A stretch of 26,072 bases of DNA. Source: a virus. The notes beneath the pieces were generated by a model that saw only the letters and a program-made list of their open reading frames with translations, was not told the DNA's origin and made no database searches. Shown here piece after piece: positions 17,379 through 24,533 of this stretch. The stretch lies in the UHGV virus genome UHGV-0157394; one strand, written 5' to 3'. Positions within the stretch are counted from its first letter, which is position 1; each line of letters opens with the position of its first letter. A program made the translations under genes and the position numbers.

Positions 17379-19112
17379 TTAAAGCGAGCGGATCCCGTAG
17401 GACTCAATGTGATCAGACAGCGTGTCTTCTTTCTCGTACAGCATGGCTCTGCCAACCGCCATAATCAGCGCAACTGCACCGTCAATTTTGTTTTCCGCCT
17501 GCTCTTTGACGGGTTTCACCACATCATCGTTACCCGGCATGTTTTTGCCGACCACGTTGCCGATACACCAGGTCATGATGGGATTGCCGTCATGATGAAA
17601 ACGTCCCGATTCAATCGCTGCTTCCAGCTCTTTCATCGGATCGGACATATTGGTGAAGTTCTGGAAGATAGTGACGGGATTCAGGTCTTCATCAGCAAGG
17701 TCATGTGACAGCCCGGTCGCCCCGAAGGGGTCGATGGGTGACTCGCTGACCGGGCTGATTTTGTTCGCCGCTTTGGCCTCTTCGAGGATGTAGCGATAAT
17801 CCACCTCTGCACCATCGGTAACGGTCAGGACGCCCATTTCCACCCATTTCTGAAAGCGTTCGGCTGTCCGGCGATCTTCATTTTTCTCGACGCTGTACAC
17901 CGTGTCATACGGTACCCAGAAACGCGGGGCCACACTGTAGTAATGCGTTTTACCGTCAATCTCGCGGGTATAAAGTCGCGCCATGCTGTTCATATCCAGT
18001 TTACGCGCCAGGTCAAAGGCCAGAATGCACGGCTGCCCCTCGAATTGCTCAAGAGTCAGTGATTTATCCTCGCAGCTCTGCCAGCTCACCAGGTTGAAAT
18101 ACGCCGAACGCGCCGACACCCAGATATTGAGGTGTTTTGTTTTAAAGACGTTTGCCAGACGGGCGTTATTTTTCGCACGCTGTTGCTGACTTAACAAAAA
18201 CTCACGGTAAACCGACACCCCGATATTCGGGTTGGCTTTTTCCAGCACCTGTGGGTTGGTCCAGTCGTCACCTTCGTCAACGGTATAGATGATCCCGAAC
18301 AGTTCATCGTTGGGTACCGAACCGTTGAGCATCTCGATAACTTCCCGCCGTTTGTCGTAGCACGGCCCCTCAATGTTGTACCCGGCAGTAGTAATGGCCC
18401 ACATCAGTGGCTGACGTCGCGCCCCCATCCCGGTAAGCATCGTGGTGTAAAGCGCATCGGTGGCGTGCTCGTGATATTCATCCACCACCGCACAGTGGGG
18501 TGATGATCCATCACCGGGGTTACCGATCAGCGGTTCAAACCGCGCGCCATCCTCCGGACGGTTCATGTTTGAGGCGTTAACCTCAATCCCGAACGCTTCC
18601 GTCAGCATGGGTGTGCGTTTACACATCAGTCGCGCCGGGCGAAAGACTTCCCACGCCTGTTTCTCTGTCGTGGCACCGGAATACACTTCCGCGCCAAACT
18701 CGTTATCACAGGCAAAACAATACAGGGCGACACCGGCAGAGATTGCCGATTTGCCGTTCTTACGGGGGATTTCGGTATACACCTCACGGAAGCGGCGCAG
18801 CCGGGAGCCTTTATTGACCCAGCCAAACGCGCAGCAGATCACAAAGAGCTGCCACGGCTCCAGCGTGATGGGCATCCTCTTAAATGCCCACTCACCCTTG
18901 GTGTGCGGCAACAGCTGAATAAATTTGGCGGCCCGTTCAGCCAGGTCCTTGTCGAAGCGGTAACGAAACGACTTACTTTTTTCCGCCATCAGGTCATCAA
19001 GATGGCGCTGGCAGGCCTGAATCACAAACTGGCAGGCCACAATCTTTCCCCGCACGACATCACGGGCATACTGATTGGCAGCATTTACGTTGGGGTAAGA
19101 TTTCCGGCTCAT
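17379..19112 (-). CDS. Terminase large subunit
   Basis: 577 aa; size and position typical of HK97-like terminase. Confidence 0.95.
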
Positions 19113-19612
19113 GATTCGATGATTTTCAGAAACGGGTTAGTGGCTTTCTTCTGCCCCGCCAGGCCTATCAGACGCTGGCGGCTGCTGGGGTCGAGTCCGA
19201 GCATTGCCCCCGTGCTGCTCATCTCGGACTCCTGTTCTTTCTTGGCGGTCAGCTCCGGGTTTTTGACCCTGCCGCCCATTGCACCGGTGATGGTGTTGCC
19301 CTGGCTGGCAATATTTTTCACGGCACGTCGCCAGAACTCATAGGCCACGCACCACCGCTCAAGTACCGCCAGGTCAGTCACGCACAGCAGGCCCTGACCG
19401 CAGAGTTCTTTGGTTGTCAGTTGCCACATGATCGTGGCGAGAGGGAGATCTTCTTCTGCGAACCACTCCGGTGGCTCAACACCTTTGATGGGCGTAAAAA
19501 CAGGTTCATCTTTGTTCAGGGCTCGCTTGCCGGGGTTTCCGGCCAGCGCCTTGCGCGCCGTTGGCTTGGGGCGACGCCCGGAACGCCCCGCCGTTCCAGC
19601 CATATGCGGCAC
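19109..19612 (-). CDS. Terminase small subunit (P27/HK97 gp1 family)
   Basis: 167 aa; N-terminal ...[26 protein letters not shown] motif. Confidence 0.9.
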
Positions 19613-19649
19613 TCCTGGTTAAATTTCATTTTTCGCGGGTATAAAAAAA

Positions 19650-19705
19650 CGATGGGGCGGGCAGTCCGGAAGACGTCAGGTCACAGGGATTTGACCCGCC
19701 CCTCC
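19650..19705. other. Candidate cos / packaging-recognition region (nested inverted repeats)
   Basis: GGGGCGGG (19654-19661) and CCCGCCCC (19695-19702) flank GGTCA...TGACC, between HNH endonuclease and terminase small subunit. Confidence 0.3.
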
Positions 19706-19728
19706 CCTCAGACAGTTGAGAATTATTA

Positions 19729-20079
19729 TCACTTTAACCGTTCACGGGCCGTCTTCGCCTTATGGCAGGGCCAGCACAGACTCTGCAGATTACTGTCGGC
19801 ATCGGTGCCGCCATGCGCTTTAGGGATGATGTGGTCAACGGTTTTAGCTTCACGCACCACACCGGCACGCAGACATAACTGACACAGGCCTTTGTCACGT
19901 TTCAGGACACGTGCGCGGATAACATCCCACTTCGAACCATAACCGCGCTGATGCCTTGATTGTCCTGATTTGTAGGATTTCCAGCCTTCGCCTTTGTGCG
20001 ACTCACAGTAACCTGATGGGTCTGTTGTCGTGGAACGGCAGCCGCGAACACGGCAAGCTTTTGGTGTTCGAGGTGGCAT
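19729..20079 (-). CDS. HNH endonuclease (terminase-associated, HK97 gp74-like)
   Basis: 116 aa with Cys pairs and DHIIPKAHGG...N...CHK HNH motif; immediately upstream of terminase genes. Confidence 0.9.
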   Translation of the reverse strand: MPPRTPKACRVRGCRSTTTDPSGYCESHKGEGWKSYKSGQSRHQRGYGSKWDVIRARVLKRDKGLCQLCLRAGVVREAKTVDHIIPKAHGGTDADSNLQSLCWPCHKAKTARERLK

Positions 20080-20091
20080 TTTAACTCCAAT

Positions 20092-20120
20092 AAAAAACCG
20101 CCCGGAGGCGGTTATAGTTT
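20092..20120 (-). terminator. Intrinsic terminator after the 92-aa moron gene
   Basis: ACCGCC-tccg-GGCGGT stem followed by TTTTTTATT on the minus strand; overlaps the stop codon of the 20112..20390 gene. Confidence 0.6.
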
Positions 20121-20390
20121 TTTGTATGGCTTTGGCTTTGGGTTGCCATGCCTGATGTGCGACTTAATCACATCGTCGCTTGGCCTGCGTCCGTTAACTC
20201 CGATCAGATAAATCTCGTCATCCACCTGGAATTCAAAGATCTGATACTCCACATCGGGGATGACCGCCACGCCACCAACCATTTCCCGAGCCTTCACTTG
20301 ACAGTCCGGAACCTTGATCGTCAACTCATGCCTTTCAACGTGGCAAACCGAACCAAAACGCCCAGCGCCGAACACAACTACGTCGAACAT
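20112..20390 (-). CDS. Moron gene: small protein of unknown function (92 aa from the ATG start)
   Basis: Strong RBS GGAGG 5 nt upstream of ATG at 20390 (the track starts at an upstream GTG); own extended -10 promoter and own terminator; AT-rich upstream region. Confidence 0.65.
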   Translation of the reverse strand: MFDVVVFGAGRFGSVCHVERHELTIKVPDCQVKAREMVGGVAVIPDVEYQIFEFQVDDEIYLIGVNGRRPSDDVIKSHIRHGNPKPKPYKKL

Positions 20391-20419
20391 ATGCACCTCC
20401 TTTCCATTGATGCCTGATA

Positions 20420-20430
20420 ATTATATCACA
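20420..20430 (-). promoter_or_regulatory. Candidate extended -10 promoter (TGtgaTATAAT) for the 92-aa gene
   Basis: Consensus TATAAT with upstream TG in the AT-rich spacer, about 30 nt upstream of the ATG. Confidence 0.4.
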
Positions 20431-20520
20431 ATGAAAATAAAGGATTTTATGTCAACCACAATAAAAATTGAGATGTTCATCACCATTATCAAGCCCACCA
20501 GCAGATGAGCTTTGTAATGG

Positions 20521-20778
20521 CTACTTCGCTTTTGCTTCCGCTCGCTTACGCCGGCGCTCTTCTTTCCTCTCGGCTTTTGCCATGTCCATGAATGCCTGCA
20601 TGATCGAGTTCCGCATCATGTAGCTAACAAAGTGATGATTGACACAGCCGTTGAGGCGCAGCTGCTCGCCAAACTCATCCACCGAGGCCAATGCTTCCAT
20701 CATGCCCTTCTCGCCTTTCATGAACTCTGAGAAGTCGCGCCCCGCTCTGGAGGCGCATTCTATTATTCGGGTGCTCAT
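20521..20778 (-). CDS. Small protein of unknown function (85 aa from internal ATG; highly basic Lys/Arg-rich C-terminal tail)
   Basis: ORF beginning 2 nt after the KilA-N gene stop (probable translational coupling); the track's upstream start at 20838 would overlap the KilA-N gene. Confidence 0.5.
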   Translation of the reverse strand: MSTRIIECASRAGRDFSEFMKGEKGMMEALASVDEFGEQLRLNGCVNHHFVSYMMRNSIMQAFMDMAKAERKEERRRKRAEAKAK

Positions 20779-20780
20779 GA

Positions 20781-21509
20781 TCAGGCCGCCGCATAGAGCA
20801 ATTTCATCTGCCCTTTCACCTGGAATGCCGACATGCAACGCGCTTCGAAATCACGATAATCAGAGCACCCATTGGCAATGCTGGTAACGGCAATGATCTG
20901 TCGCTCAACCAATGTCAGCGCGTCAGGTTTAAGGTGCTGATGGATTTTGTCTCCCGTAGCCAGCCGTCTTTTAACCTCTGCATATACTTCTGGTGGTAAT
21001 ACCGGGCCATATACCCACTTGGCACTGATCATCCCAAATAGTGCGGGGCGACGACCTGGTCGATGACGGGGCAGCCCTGACATTTTGAACATCGCAGAAT
21101 AAAACGGATCGCTAAACCTCTTTTCCCATGGCTGAGATTTATCCAGAAGGAAAATAGCCTTTATTCTTTCATCGTCGATATGATGAACGGAACCCTGAAT
21201 GATTGCGTCAATTTGCTCATCACACCAGATCTCAAAATCTACAGAAAGCCATCGAGCAAATCTGACCGCCAGTTTTGGGTGAAGCCATGTTCCGCCACCA
21301 CGATCTTTGCGAGCGCGGCTGGTTTTTACATATGTGATATTCCCATATCTACTCTTTAACGCCTCGATGTAACGGACAGTCTCAGGAAGCCTAAGCCACT
21401 GAGCCGGCTCCTTGTTGAACTTGTCAGCTGCCGCAGTCGCGTCAAACCAGCCATCGTCAGAAAAACGCATGGGATGGCCTTCGAAATCAATCGGGATGAT
21501 ATTGGACAT
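20781..21509 (-). CDS. KilA-N domain protein with an unassigned C-terminal domain
   Basis: IPIDFEGHPMRF...GGTWLHPKLAVRFARWLSVDFEIWC matches the KilA-N hallmark; likely start is the ATG at 21509 with AAAGG RBS rather than the track's 21584. Confidence 0.75.
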   Translation of the reverse strand: MSNIIPIDFEGHPMRFSDDGWFDATAAADKFNKEPAQWLRLPETVRYIEALKSRYGNITYVKTSRARKDRGGGTWLHPKLAVRFARWLSVDFEIWCDEQIDAIIQGSVHHIDDERIKAIFLLDKSQPWEKRFSDPFYSAMFKMSGLPRHRPGRRPALFGMISAKWVYGPVLPPEVYAEVKRRLATGDKIHQHLKPDALTLVERQIIAVTSIANGCSDYRDFEARCMSAFQVKGQMKLLYAAA

Positions 21510-21659
21510 CGTATTTACCTTTTTGGTGATATGAGCCAGTTCTCGCAGACATGGACAGCCCAAGAGCGGCACGATGTAAGCCACCGTCCTGTCTCTGTCT
21601 CATATCCCGAAAAGCTCTTGGTTGATATGCGCACGAGAATGCGCGTTTACTGCGGACAT

Positions 21660-21683
21660 AAAAAAGCCCCGCATCGCGAGGCT
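21660..21683 (-). terminator. Intrinsic terminator downstream of the lysis cassette
   Basis: AGCCUCGC-gau-GCGGGGCU stem (one G-U pair) followed by UUUUUUAUG on the minus strand. Confidence 0.55.
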
Positions 21684-21714
21684 CATTAAATGGACTTTGT
21701 GATTTGCAAAAAAA

Positions 21715-22152
21715 TTATTTCAGGCACTGAGTCCTGATGTACTCCTGCAGGTAGTTAACCTGCGCGGTTATCCTGTCGATTCCACTTCGGAGACGGTAAT
21801 AATTGAGTTCAGCATCTGCTGTAAGTCCTGGGCTTTCTCCATCGCCCATGCCGCTGGCTCCGGTCGTTGACTTTGCACAGGTGGCGGCGACTTGCAGGCG
21901 CTTACGACCAGCAGAAACATCAGCACGGAGGCTTTCGATAGTCGCGTTAGCATCAGCAAGCTCCTTTGTGTATCTGGCATCGAGTTCTGCTACGTCACGT
22001 TGACGCTTCTGCATGTCAGCGATTGTGGATGTGGCTTTATCGCGCTGTTCTTTGTAGGCGATGGCGTTATCACGGTAATGATTAACCGCCCATGACAGGC
22101 AGACGATGATGCAGATAACCAGAGCGGAGATAATCGCGGTTACTCTGCTCAT
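21715..22152 (-). CDS. Rz: Spanin inner-membrane subunit Rz
   Basis: N-terminal [31 protein letters not shown] near-identical to lambda Rz; remainder diverged. Confidence 0.9.
21768..21953 (-). CDS. Rz1: Spanin outer-membrane lipoprotein Rz1, embedded in Rz in the +1 frame
   Basis: Embedded ORF with lipobox-like LVVSAC followed by a Pro-rich segment; exact start among several Met codons is uncertain. Confidence 0.6.
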
Positions 22153-22625
22153 ACCTCAATCTCTCTGACCGTTCCACCTGCTTCTTTGAATTTTGCAATC
22201 AGGCTGTCTGCCTTATGCTCGAACTGACCATAACCAGCACCCGGCAGTGAAGCCCAGATATTGCTGCAACGGTCGATTGCCTGACGGATATCGCCGCGAT
22301 CAATCATCGGTAAAGCGCCACGCTCCTTAATCTGCTGCAATGCCACAGCGTCCTGGCTTTTGGGAGAGAAGTCTTTCAGGCCAAGCTGCTTGCGGTAGGC
22401 ATCCCACCAACGGGAAAGAAGCTGGTAGCGTCCTGCGGCTGTTGATTTGAGTTTGGGGTTTAGCGTGACAAGTTTGCGAGGGTGATCGGAGTAATCAGTG
22501 AATAGCTCTCCTCCTACAATGACGTCATAACCATGATTTCTGGTTTTCTGACGTCCGTTATCAGTTCCCTCTGACCATGCCAGCATATCGAGGAACGCCT
22601 TACGTTGATTATTGATTTCCACCAT
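22149..22625 (-). CDS. R: Endolysin R (lytic transglycosylase)
   Basis: 158 aa, essentially identical to lambda R as recalled. Confidence 0.95.
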
Positions 22626-22932
22626 CTTCTACTCCGGCTTTTTTAGCAGCGAAGCGTTTGATAAGCGAACCAATCGAGTCAGTACCGATGTAGCCGATGA
22701 ACACGCTCGTTATATAAGCGAGATTGCTACTTAGTCCGGCGAGGTCGAGAAGATCACGAATGAACCAGGCGATAATGGCGCACATCGTTGCGTCGATTAC
22801 TGTTTTTGTAAACGCACCGCCATTATATCTGCCGCGAAGGTACGCCATTGCAAACGCAAGGATTGCCCCGATGCCTTGTTCCTTTGCCGCGAGAATGGCG
22901 GCTAACAGGTCATTTTTTTCTGGCATCTTCAT
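22609..22932 (-). CDS. S: Holin S (class I, dual-start S107/S105)
   Basis: [39 protein letters not shown]... near-identical to lambda S, including Met1-Lys2-Met3. Confidence 0.95.
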
Positions 22933-23230
22933 GTCTTACCCCCAATAAGGGGATTTGCTCTATTTAATTAGGAATAAGGTCGGTTACTGATAGAACAAAT
23001 CCAGGCTACTGTGTTTAGTAATCAGATTTGTTCGTGACCGATATGCACGGGCAAAACGGCATGAGGTTGTTAGCGCAACCTCTTGCCACCCGCTTTCACG
23101 AAGCCAGCCATTGAGCTGGTTTTCTTTTATGCAAAGCACACCGCACCGTAGCCACAGCGGATAAGGTGATTATTTTTGTCTGTCTGGTATTTGGTTTGAT
23201 GTGCTTTCAGAAAGGCCGTGCTTAAAACGC

Positions 23231-23262
23231 AAAAAGCCCCGAGCTATTAACTCAGGGCTTTA
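23231..23262 (-). terminator. Intrinsic terminator about 30-60 nt downstream of the pR' start (tR'-like)
   Basis: AGCCCUGAG-uuaauag-CUCGGGGCU stem then UUUUUGCG on the minus strand. Confidence 0.6.
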
Positions 23263-23294
23263 TTTAACGAGTGCATTTATCCATCGTTGAGTCA

Positions 23295-23323
23295 AATTTA
23301 CCCAACTTTATTCAAAAAGTCAA
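23295..23323 (-). promoter_or_regulatory. Late promoter pR' with overlapping qut region (TTGACT, 17 bp, TAAATT)
   Basis: TTGACTTTTTGAATAAAGTTGGGTAAATTTGACTCAACGATGG on the minus strand matches lambda pR'/qut as recalled, directly downstream of Q. Confidence 0.75.
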
Positions 23324-23365
23324 TATTATGCCGTTAATATGTTGCCATCCGTGGCAATCATGCTG

Positions 23366-23989
23366 CTAACGTGTGACCGCGTTCAAAATGTTGTCTGCGA
23401 TTGACTCTTCTTTGTGGCATTGCACCACCAGAGCGTCATACAGCGGCTTAACAGTGCGTGACCAGGTGGGTTGGGTAAGGTTTGGTACTAGCATCGTCAC
23501 AGCGCGATATGCAGCGCTTGCTGGCATTCTTGAATAACCGACGCCTTTGCATCTTCCGCATTCTTTCTCAACAACTCTCCCCCACTGCTCTGTTTTTGCT
23601 ATATCAACCGCACGGCCTGTACCGTGGCAATCTCTGCATCTTGCGCCCGGCGTCGCGGCACTACGGCAATAATCCGCATAAGCGAATGTTGCGAGCACTT
23701 GCAGTACCTTTGCCTTAGTATTTCCTTCGAGCTTTGCCACACCACGGTATTTCCCCGATACCTTGTGTGCAAATTGCATCAGATAGTTGATAGCCTTTTG
23801 TTTGTCGTTCTGGCTGAGTTCGTGCTTACCGCAGAATGCAGCCATACCGAATCCGGCTTGTGATTGCGCCATCCCCATAGCAGCCATCACATCAGTACCG
23901 GAAAGGGAGTCAGAAGCCGTGGCCCGTGGTGAGTCGCTCATCATCGGGCTTTTTGGCGAATGAAATTTAGCTACGCTTTCGAGTCTCAT
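23366..23989 (-). CDS. Q: Late gene antiterminator Q (lambda type)
   Basis: 207 aa, essentially identical to lambda Q over its whole length, including the zinc-binding Cys cluster. Confidence 0.97.
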   Translation of the reverse strand: MRLESVAKFHSPKSPMMSDSPRATASDSLSGTDVMAAMGMAQSQAGFGMAAFCGKHELSQNDKQKAINYLMQFAHKVSGKYRGVAKLEGNTKAKVLQVLATFAYADYCRSAATPGARCRDCHGTGRAVDIAKTEQWGRVVEKECGRCKGVGYSRMPASAAYRAVTMLVPNLTQPTWSRTVKPLYDALVVQCHKEESIADNILNAVTR

Positions 23990-24174
23990 CGTCTTCCCCT
24001 CTTGCCCTGTTTGACCATCAGGACGCCGTTAACTATTACGTGACGCTCACCTTTGCTGTCTCGGTTGTACTTGAGCACTGTTCCTCTTGCGCAGGAAAGC
24101 ATCCTTGCCACTTCGGTCTGATTGCCTCGTGTCTGGATAAGAAGCTCTGGTATCGTTTGAATTGTGGCGTTCAT
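23986..24174 (-). CDS. ninH: NinH
   Basis: 62 aa with NQTEVAR...C.RGTV.KY...G..H.IVN.VLMV pattern matching lambda NinH. Confidence 0.85.
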   Translation of the reverse strand: MNATIQTIPELLIQTRGNQTEVARMLSCARGTVLKYNRDSKGERHVIVNGVLMVKQGKRGRR

Positions 24175-24533
24175 GCGTTCTCCAGTTCGGTGATTTTTAT
24201 TCCAAGCCTTCCGCCTGGTACTTTCACACCACGAATTACGCGAATGTCATCGAATTGCTCGTCGTCTTCCGCAAATCCGGCGTGGATAAGGGAGTCGAGT
24301 AAACCCTTCAGGATGTTATCGAGGTCGCGGCGGCGGGAGTCTGGAACGTCTGCGATGACTTTGATGCGGAGTCGTGATTTGGTGAAAATGTCTAACTTAA
24401 GTTGGCGGATGATTTGCTGAACGTCTTTTCGGTATTTCTGGCCTTTATCGCTGATGTAGTATTGGCTTCCCCGTCTTCGCCAGTAGGTGTTCACCGACGG
24501 CGGGTATGGAAGCACAAACTGATATTCGTTCAT
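24171..24533 (-). CDS. rusA: Holliday junction resolvase RusA
   Basis: 120 aa; MNEYQFVLPYPPSVN...RRRDLDN...KITELENA typical of RusA. Confidence 0.9.
   Translation of the reverse strand: MNEYQFVLPYPPSVNTYWRRRGSQYYISDKGQKYRKDVQQIIRQLKLDIFTKSRLRIKVIADVPDSRRRDLDNILKGLLDSLIHAGFAEDDEQFDDIRVIRGVKVPGGRLGIKITELENA

Follow-up and report, generated by a model that had tools for sequence, protein, structure and literature searches.

A candidate moron encoding a 92-residue orphan protein in the lysis-to-packaging slot of lambdoid prophages

The UHGV virus genome UHGV-0157394 (26,072 nucleotides, from an E. coli prophage; the whole stretch is referred to below as the window) carries a small unit between its lysis cassette and its packaging genes. 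This unit of about 400 bp (approximately 20088-20483, minus strand) consists of a promoter sequence, a single gene encoding an orphan protein of 92 amino acids (aa) and a terminator. Our analysis indicated that it is very probably a moron occupying a variable slot at the lysis-to-packaging junction of lambdoid prophages. Morons are promoter-plus-terminator units expressed from a repressed prophage (PMC3594210; also PMC2629481). We used the definition of Juhala et al. 2000 as quoted in these two papers, considering extra DNA between genes that are adjacent in relatives, an own promoter, an own terminator and a deviant base composition. The signals found in the sequence suggest that the moron is probably expressed autonomously, and they favour expression in lysogens to the same degree. 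A role of its product in the conflict between phages is possible and is put forward tentatively.

The assignment is carried first by the comparison with related phages. The window is matched at 97-99% by HK97, HK022, mEp234, mEpX1/2, mEp235 and HK446 from 21700 as far as 20484; exactly there the sequences diverge. HK97, HK022 and the mEp phages share this junction and have no 92-aa unit; HK97 carries an unrelated non-coding stretch of ~350 bp ahead of its HNH gene 74. Since HK97-type homology ends at 20484, the 5' limit of the unit was set at ~20483, and the 3' limit was set at 20088 because homology with prophages having other downstream genes ends there. By alignment, the shared block spans ~20088-20520, and homology stops abruptly a few bases after the T run of the terminator. 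The unit is additional DNA, placed between neighbouring genes of the related phages.

In every lambdoid locus examined, the 92-aa gene was found after the lysis cassette, often behind a KilA-N or Rha gene, and ahead of the terminase genes, with which it is co-oriented. Three combinations of flanking genes were found in E. coli: an 85-aa gene combined with the HNH and P27 terminase genes of the window; the 85-aa gene with a different HNH gene and a packaging set with a DUF1073 portal; and an upstream Rha gene paired with a downstream gene on the opposite strand. The packaging modules beside the unit in Enterobacteriaceae are of the HK97/P27, lambda GpA, Terminase_3, Terminase_6C or DUF1073-portal type, and the Q types also vary among the loci. 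With no constant partner, the gene does not represent a conserved late function. It may be dispensable for lytic growth, as it is missing from the viable phages HK97 and HK022 and has no constant partner module. A preliminary description, made from the window alone, had proposed a self-contained accessory unit in the late operon and had named a conserved late protein present in all relatives as the finding that would refute it. The survey of the junction clearly gave the opposite result: the unit is lacking in the closest relatives, and its flanks vary elsewhere.

At the level of sequence, the unit has its own promoter. The extended -10 element TGaTATAAT (TGATATAAT), first reported with no strand given, lies on the minus strand at 20420-20428 (read from 20428 to 20420). 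The sequence TGNTATAAT occurs once in the 26-kb window, with 0.5 occurrences expected and at least one found in 37 of 100 shuffles, and this single occurrence is by itself not significant. The promoter call carries weight because of conservation, not because of the rarity of the motif. TG and TATAAT are invariant in eight representative alleles, despite synonymous divergence (dS) of up to ~2 in the coding sequence, and TG[AG]TATAAT was found in all 16 lambdoid loci checked; at a further locus (L145), TGATAAAAT stands in place of TGATATAAT. A TGnTAnAAT motif within 90 nt upstream of the gene was present in 4/4 cassettes of the 92-aa family, as compared with 6/103 other cassettes closed by the same terminator.

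Most alleles display TTGnAA-18-TGnTATAAT, with 11 of 12 consensus matches plus the TG. Most also have an upstream promoter in tandem, TTGACA-16-TGnAATGAT, of which TTGACA is the -35. In the window, TTGACA (20450-20455, minus strand) sits within a conserved block, ATTGTGGTTGACATA, that is invariant across alleles, and its distance to TATAAT is 24 nt, beyond the working range for a -35. A 12-bp deletion in the window lineage took both the downstream -35 (TTGnAA) and the upstream -10. This deletion, seen by comparing window positions 20429-20449 with L010 5931-5963 and L018 5932-5964, is shared by the window lineage, loci L001-L004 and L145, and joins the -35 of the outer promoter to the inner extended -10 at a non-functional spacing of 24 nt. 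The window promoter would therefore depend on the extended -10 alone, as no -35 is present at a working distance.

The Shine-Dalgarno sequence AGGAGGT (20395-20401, minus strand) is located 5 nt before the ATG at 20390, as described previously, and the GG.G core of this ribosome-binding site is kept across alleles. The GTG at 20396 proposed by the open reading frame (ORF) lister falls inside it, so that the ATG at 20390 was taken as the start. The upstream spacer (20391-20520), earlier estimated at roughly 120 bp, measures 130 bp and is indeed AT-rich, with a GC content of 35% (30% without a 38-nt hairpin discussed below); candidate CRP-like and Fur-like sites noticed in it by eye were dropped, as the matches are not conserved between alleles. 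In the eight representative alleles, invariant columns made up a fraction of 0.55 of the promoter core, 0.70 of the first 30 nt past the stop codon, where the terminator lies, and 0.26 of third codon positions; past the terminator the fraction was 0. Upstream of the gene, invariance is confined to the ATTGTGGTTGACATA block, the TG, the TATAAT and the ribosome-binding-site core, whereas the promoter spacer and 5' untranslated region vary. We read this pattern as a probable functional footprint, not as simple hitch-hiking.

The unit also ends in a terminator (20089-20113, minus strand), made of a 7-bp GC-rich stem, a tetraloop and a T run. The stem, AACCGCC-TCCG-GGCGGTT (20113-20096), has a folding free energy (dG) of -12.8 kcal/mol, and only one of 200 shuffles was as stable. 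The last two bases of the TAA stop codon open the stem. The preliminary description had presented it as the gene's own terminator, overlapping the stop; its strength and the overlap stand, but it is not exclusive to this gene. The terminator sequence CCGCCTCCGGGCGGTTTTTT is usually followed by ATTGCCAT and a second hairpin. In several loci, this second, related hairpin (CCATyAC...TAATGG) lies 3' of the terminator, so that the unit is bracketed. Using the terminator and the next few bases as a query, we recovered at least 120 further viral contigs. An ORF of at least 40 aa ends just before the terminator in 107 of 120 contigs, and grouping the ORFs gave at least 40 unrelated clusters. The five largest clusters have holin, endolysin and Rz genes upstream and terminase genes downstream, and all the terminator-closed genes checked sit between the lysis and terminase genes of enterobacterial phages or prophages. 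The terminator is thus a shared 3' boundary of a slot. It is the promoter that makes the 92-aa cassette autonomous; no convincing promoter was found in the two alternative cassettes scanned. Among ten representative cargo proteins, one family was YnfU-like and one contained DUF2513. A 227-aa DUF4145 cargo protein (for example at L187) matched the PADLOC model of PD-T7-4, a defence system (E = 2.9e-12).

The other edge of the slot is a conserved 38-nt hairpin, CCATTACAAAGC..GCTTGATAATGG (20483-20520, minus strand), directly 3' of the stop codon that ends the upstream 85-aa gene. Its dG is -21.2 kcal/mol (z -4.3), and it has no U tract. The stem pairs in 94% of the cells of a comparison of 22 distinct variants; two pairs are changed on both sides, and the inner stem covaries (GCTCA/TGGGC versus GCGTC/GGCGC). 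The hairpin is found in HK97 too (L005 1033-1070), which has no 92-aa unit, and in L025-L144. Overall, at least 120 viral contigs contain it, and the sequence 3' of it is very diverse. The hairpin is the 5' boundary of the slot and lies outside the inserted unit; RNA processing or stability, or service as a recombination joint, are possible roles. The 92-aa unit occupies 2 of 120 hairpin-bearing viral contigs. Nine others meet the same terminator 356-424 nt further on with unrelated genes in between, namely an 87-aa family (phrog_26863), a ~100-aa family (phrog_31348) and a 120-aa hydrophobic protein. Profile comparison with hhalign gave a probability of ~1% or less for kinship between the 92-aa protein and slot cassettes B and C.

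Mosaic joints were found at the edges of the slot and even within the gene, which suggests exchange by homologous recombination. A bolder proposal combines two claims, that the post-lysis slot is a cassette-exchange site edged by the hairpin and a near-universal terminator and that the 92-aa proteins form a new family of cytoplasmic single-gene effectors in phage conflict. We regard the two together as having a rather modest chance of being right. Dozens of unrelated small genes would then be swapped between phages through recombination at both edges, and the 92-aa family would be the sole cargo among those found that consistently brings its own constitutive promoter.

The coding sequence (20112-20390, minus strand, stop codon included), described correctly from the outset, is a real gene under purifying selection, because the pairwise ratio of nonsynonymous to synonymous divergence (dN/dS) in the family is 0.12-0.5. 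Its GC content is 0.50, as compared with 0.48-0.60 for its neighbours, and its GC at third codon positions (0.59) is inside their range; the AT-rich part is limited to the promoter spacer (GC 0.30-0.35). Within the gene, a recombination joint is visible: the L003 allele is window-like over the first ~70 codons, but over its final ~68 nt it is identical to L018 (L003 5025-5092 and L018 6212-6279), an allele encoding a protein only 50% identical to that of the window. The C-terminal protein sequence of L145 is the same as that of L003. Third-position invariance is 0.41 over the last 32 codons versus 0.18 over the first 60. An antisense ORF of 89 aa (20148-20417, plus strand) was considered and rejected as an artefact of codon phase. 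It is open in all alleles (81-101 aa), but it shares the codon phase of the gene exactly, and stops are then confined to TTA, CTA and TCA codons; the chance of no antisense stop is 0.1-0.44 per allele, and the antisense translation is less conserved than the sense protein.

These observations allow a different account to be weighed, in which the gene is an ordinary accessory gene of the late operon, transcribed mainly by Q read-through, and the promoter-like and terminator sequences are kept as recombination joints only. The constant co-orientation with late genes, the mosaic joints in and near the unit, and the other slot cassettes that share the hairpin and terminator and have no clear promoter all agree with it. 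It explains poorly why invariance falls precisely on the TG, the TATAAT and the ribosome-binding site while the spacer and 5' untranslated region vary, why most alleles have two tandem near-consensus promoters, and why extended -10 motifs are found in all four family cassettes and seldom elsewhere. We consider this account improbable.

The 92-aa protein has a mass of 10.4 kDa and an isoelectric point (pI) of 6.9 (family median 5.5). No membrane segment is predicted, the highest Kyte-Doolittle hydropathy over 19 residues being 0.99, and the charged and hydrophobic segments that make up a signal peptide are missing from the N-terminus; the protein is predicted to be soluble. The invariant residues are mainly glycines and hydrophobic residues (F7, G10, G13, Y61, L62, G64, P70 and I75). 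The centre (residues 14-50) is most variable, and the C-terminal third and a PKPKPYKTL tail are conserved. Two AlphaFold models, both of low confidence (predicted local distance difference test scores of 60 and 48), were mostly beta with one short helix, and fold searches with them returned nothing usable. No conserved motif of a catalytic type was found in the protein.

Searches against Pfam, NCBIfam and PDB sequences gave no match, in agreement with the first description, which had recognised no known family. Among the PHROGs, phrog_17438 was the only match (full length, E = 3.6e-27); it represents the same protein family and has no annotated function. A profile hidden Markov model (HMM) run against 1.84 billion representative proteins gave five hits at E <= 0.001. 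Four of these were a truncated copy or short members of the family; the fifth was a weak match (E = 3.8e-05) within a 6624-aa protein. Two candidate assignments were rejected. One member, WP_001548473.1 (L022 3866-4144 and L024 3866-4144), appears in RefSeq under two names, as a 'PP2C family serine/threonine-protein phosphatase' and, in a second record, as a 'hypothetical protein'. A match to a PP2C, PP2C_2 or SpoIIE profile would be expected of such a phosphatase; no member of the 32 gave a hit to a PP2C model even at E <= 10, and NCBIfam gave nothing either. A PP2C catalytic domain comprises roughly 240 aa and has metal-binding motifs, and the protein is just 92 aa long; the name looks like a spreading annotation artefact. 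A Rossmann GxGxxG motif had been suspected in FGAGRFG. Many members have an aspartate as the first residue of the motif instead of glycine (FDDGKPG), invariance is limited to G10 and G13, the predicted structure past the motif is beta rather than helix, and the single hit, to TIGR00031, had an E of 0.11.

Iterated searches yielded 32 protein clusters (at 90% identity), all of 91-94 aa, from Escherichia, Leclercia, Kluyvera, Atlantibacter, Cronobacter, Enterobacter and Salmonella. Of 5426 complete E. coli genomes, 9 had the window allele and 23 had some allele of the gene; strain NCTC9066 (LR134000.1) is one carrier, with a unit 99.6% identical to that of the window. No member was found in 50,697 records of isolated phages or in 72,556 plasmids, and the 185,579 genomes of GTDB species representatives contained a single locus, in Leclercia adecarboxylata. 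The family is rare and confined to prophages of Enterobacteriaceae. A distant branch of 91 aa, with 26-33% identity (L016 6001-6276 and L017 366-641), differs in its setting: it stands alone downstream of a primase gene (Zn-ribbon, Toprim, DUF927) with gaps of ~400 bp on either side, has its own different terminator and no consensus promoter, and belongs to an element that also encodes a tape-measure protein.

How the moron might work can be proposed from its sequence and from what is established for lambda Q and for extended -10 promoters. Host RNA polymerase with sigma-70 would, in the repressed prophage, start ~7 nt past the TATAAT, near 20413. A monocistronic mRNA of ~320 nt would then stop at the terminator, and the HNH and terminase genes would stay silent. 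After induction, Q-modified polymerase coming from the late promoter at 23295-23323 would read through the unit. The 10.4-kDa soluble, mostly beta product would most probably act by binding another protein, and it may protect the lysogen, and hence the prophage, against other phages through an intracellular target. Our best guess is a lysogen-expressed binding protein involved in phage competition. This role is favoured because the protein is small and soluble and has no catalytic signature, because its centre diversifies, and because a PD-T7-4-like gene occurs in the same slot and defence genes occur in prophage hot spots, which are known reservoirs of such genes (PMC9519451). The idea of a defence, exclusion or toxin function put forward in the preliminary description has support from position only, through the PD-T7-4-like gene found in this slot elsewhere; a toxin role is unlikely.

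Several observations weigh against a lysogen-expressed moron acting in phage conflict. Deprived of a usable -35 by the 12-bp deletion, the window allele could have a weak promoter. The conservation of the flanks could partly reflect homogenisation by recombination, and mosaicism is visible within the gene itself (L003/L018). Many cassettes in which no promoter can be recognised end in this same terminator, which may serve the slot generally rather than expression in the lysogen. The base composition resembles that of the flanks, and a usual, though not obligatory, trait of morons is thereby absent. Finally, PADLOC-DB v2 defence models gave no match at E <= 1, and the known exclusion morons are membrane proteins or lipoproteins, the 92-aa protein being neither.

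The same small protein could instead be an early, 'first-in' factor for counter-defence or host takeover, made before Q-dependent late transcription and neutralising a host defence or other host factor through binding. The gene lies ~0.5 kb from the junction of the HNH gene and the small terminase gene (terS), where cos is located in HK97-type phages. Lambda DNA enters the cell right end first, and a constitutive promoter near the cos end would serve an incoming phage. The family is small, soluble and mostly acidic (median pI as above), its central region varies as an arms race would have it, and no defence model matches it. The gene is nevertheless found at the same position beside headful-type terminases (Terminase_3 and Terminase_6C), where proximity to a DNA end carries no such meaning. 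The protein also shows no likeness to known anti-defence proteins in sequence or fold, and a strong terminator before the packaging genes better suits expression in a lysogen. We rate an early function as doubtful.

A lysogenic-conversion gene acting on host physiology, through stress tolerance, metabolism or colonisation, is about as doubtful as an early function. Its architecture would be the same as that of the moron proposed here, such roles are common among morons (PMC3594210, PMC7067206), and carriers were isolated from gut, food and water. The lack of a signal peptide, membrane anchor or enzyme motif argues against a surface or secreted virulence factor, and the family is very rare, as the 23 carriers among complete E. 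coli genomes indicate; the records seen show no link to a pathotype. A toxin or addiction module can practically be dismissed: the gene is small and autonomous and no tool result speaks in favour of a toxin, while no conserved partner is adjacent, the neighbours differing in every context, no antisense RNA family was found with Rfam, the antisense ORF is the artefact discussed above, membrane segments and known toxin domains are lacking, and a toxin under an unregulated consensus promoter would be lethal.

The closest known counterpart of the candidate moron is HK97 gene 15, the moron encoding the superinfection-exclusion protein gp15 (Juhala et al. 2000, Cumby et al. 2012; reviewed in PMC3594210). 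Like gene 15, the unit comprises one small gene flanked by a promoter and a terminator, is co-oriented in an HK97-type late operon and is missing from close relatives, and its homologues are restricted to Enterobacteriaceae. Gene 15 lies in the tail operon, whereas the 92-aa unit is at the lysis-packaging junction. The two proteins have no sequence similarity. gp15 is an inner-membrane protein related to YebO, whereas the 92-aa protein is predicted to be soluble and, unlike gp15, has homologues in prophage contexts only among those seen. The expression and function of gp15 have been demonstrated, while those of the 92-aa protein are predicted from sequence. More generally, the membrane superinfection-exclusion proteins (gp15, SieA and Cor-type) are membrane proteins or lipoproteins, which sets the 92-aa protein apart from them.

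Like lambda bor, next to Rz, and the 'ant moron' of P22-like phages (PMC2629481), the unit is a variable accessory gene at a fixed and tolerated position of a late operon, where phages that are otherwise syntenic differ. Unlike the 92-aa gene, bor is a lipoprotein gene read from the opposite strand, and the ant moron lies ahead of the tailspike gene. The slot of the 92-aa unit also differs from the bor and ant sites in having a conserved hairpin at one edge and a shared terminator at the other, and in containing mostly single small orphan genes. The slot resembles the defence hot spots of P2 and P4 prophages (Vassallo et al. 2022, PMC9519451) in its fixed position and its many alternative, mostly hypothetical genes, one of which matches PD-T7-4. 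Unlike PD-T7-4 and the other hot-spot systems, the 92-aa protein has no PADLOC match. We found no description of the post-lysis slot as a defence hot spot.

The minus strand carries every gene of this part of the window. Q (23366-23989) comes first; a late promoter of the lambda type, TTGACT-17-TAAATT (23323-23295), and its terminator (23261-23233) follow, and then the holin, endolysin and Rz genes (22932-21715). A hairpin resembling an intrinsic terminator, with 9 pairs and then a T run (21684-21664), separates Rz from a KilA-N/P63C gene of the HK97 gp73 type (21584-20781). The upstream neighbour of the unit is the 85-aa late-region gene (phrog_875, 20521-20778), which is common to HK97-like phages. 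The HNH endonuclease gene downstream (19729-20079; Pfam HNH, E = 2.4e-16) precedes the terminase genes, and its ribosome-binding site begins immediately past the terminator of the unit. Genes for a P27-type small terminase, the large terminase and the portal follow, on the same strand. The late operon contains several terminators, passable presumably by Q-modified polymerase only. A mosaic joint was seen at ~20760, within the overlap of the 85-aa and KilA-N genes: L001 and L002 are window-like as far as 20760 and then carry a different, 165-aa KilA-N gene. A scan of 19000-24500 for known RNA families gave nothing credible.

Morons are the main route by which temperate phages alter their hosts, and most of the small proteins they encode are functionally uncharacterised. 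The unit described here is a clean and compact example, with regulatory signals better conserved than codons, and its product belongs to an orphan family in a slot that also holds a validated type of defence gene. The 92-aa unit is a new member of a well-known kind of element, and the slot bounded by the hairpin and the terminator is of broader interest. Should the gene have no phenotype, it would be one more routine hypothetical moron. If a function in defence or counter-defence proves true, it would add a soluble single-gene effector of ~90 residues to the catalogue, and the post-lysis slot of lambdoid prophages would be worth mining, like the P2 and P4 hot spots.

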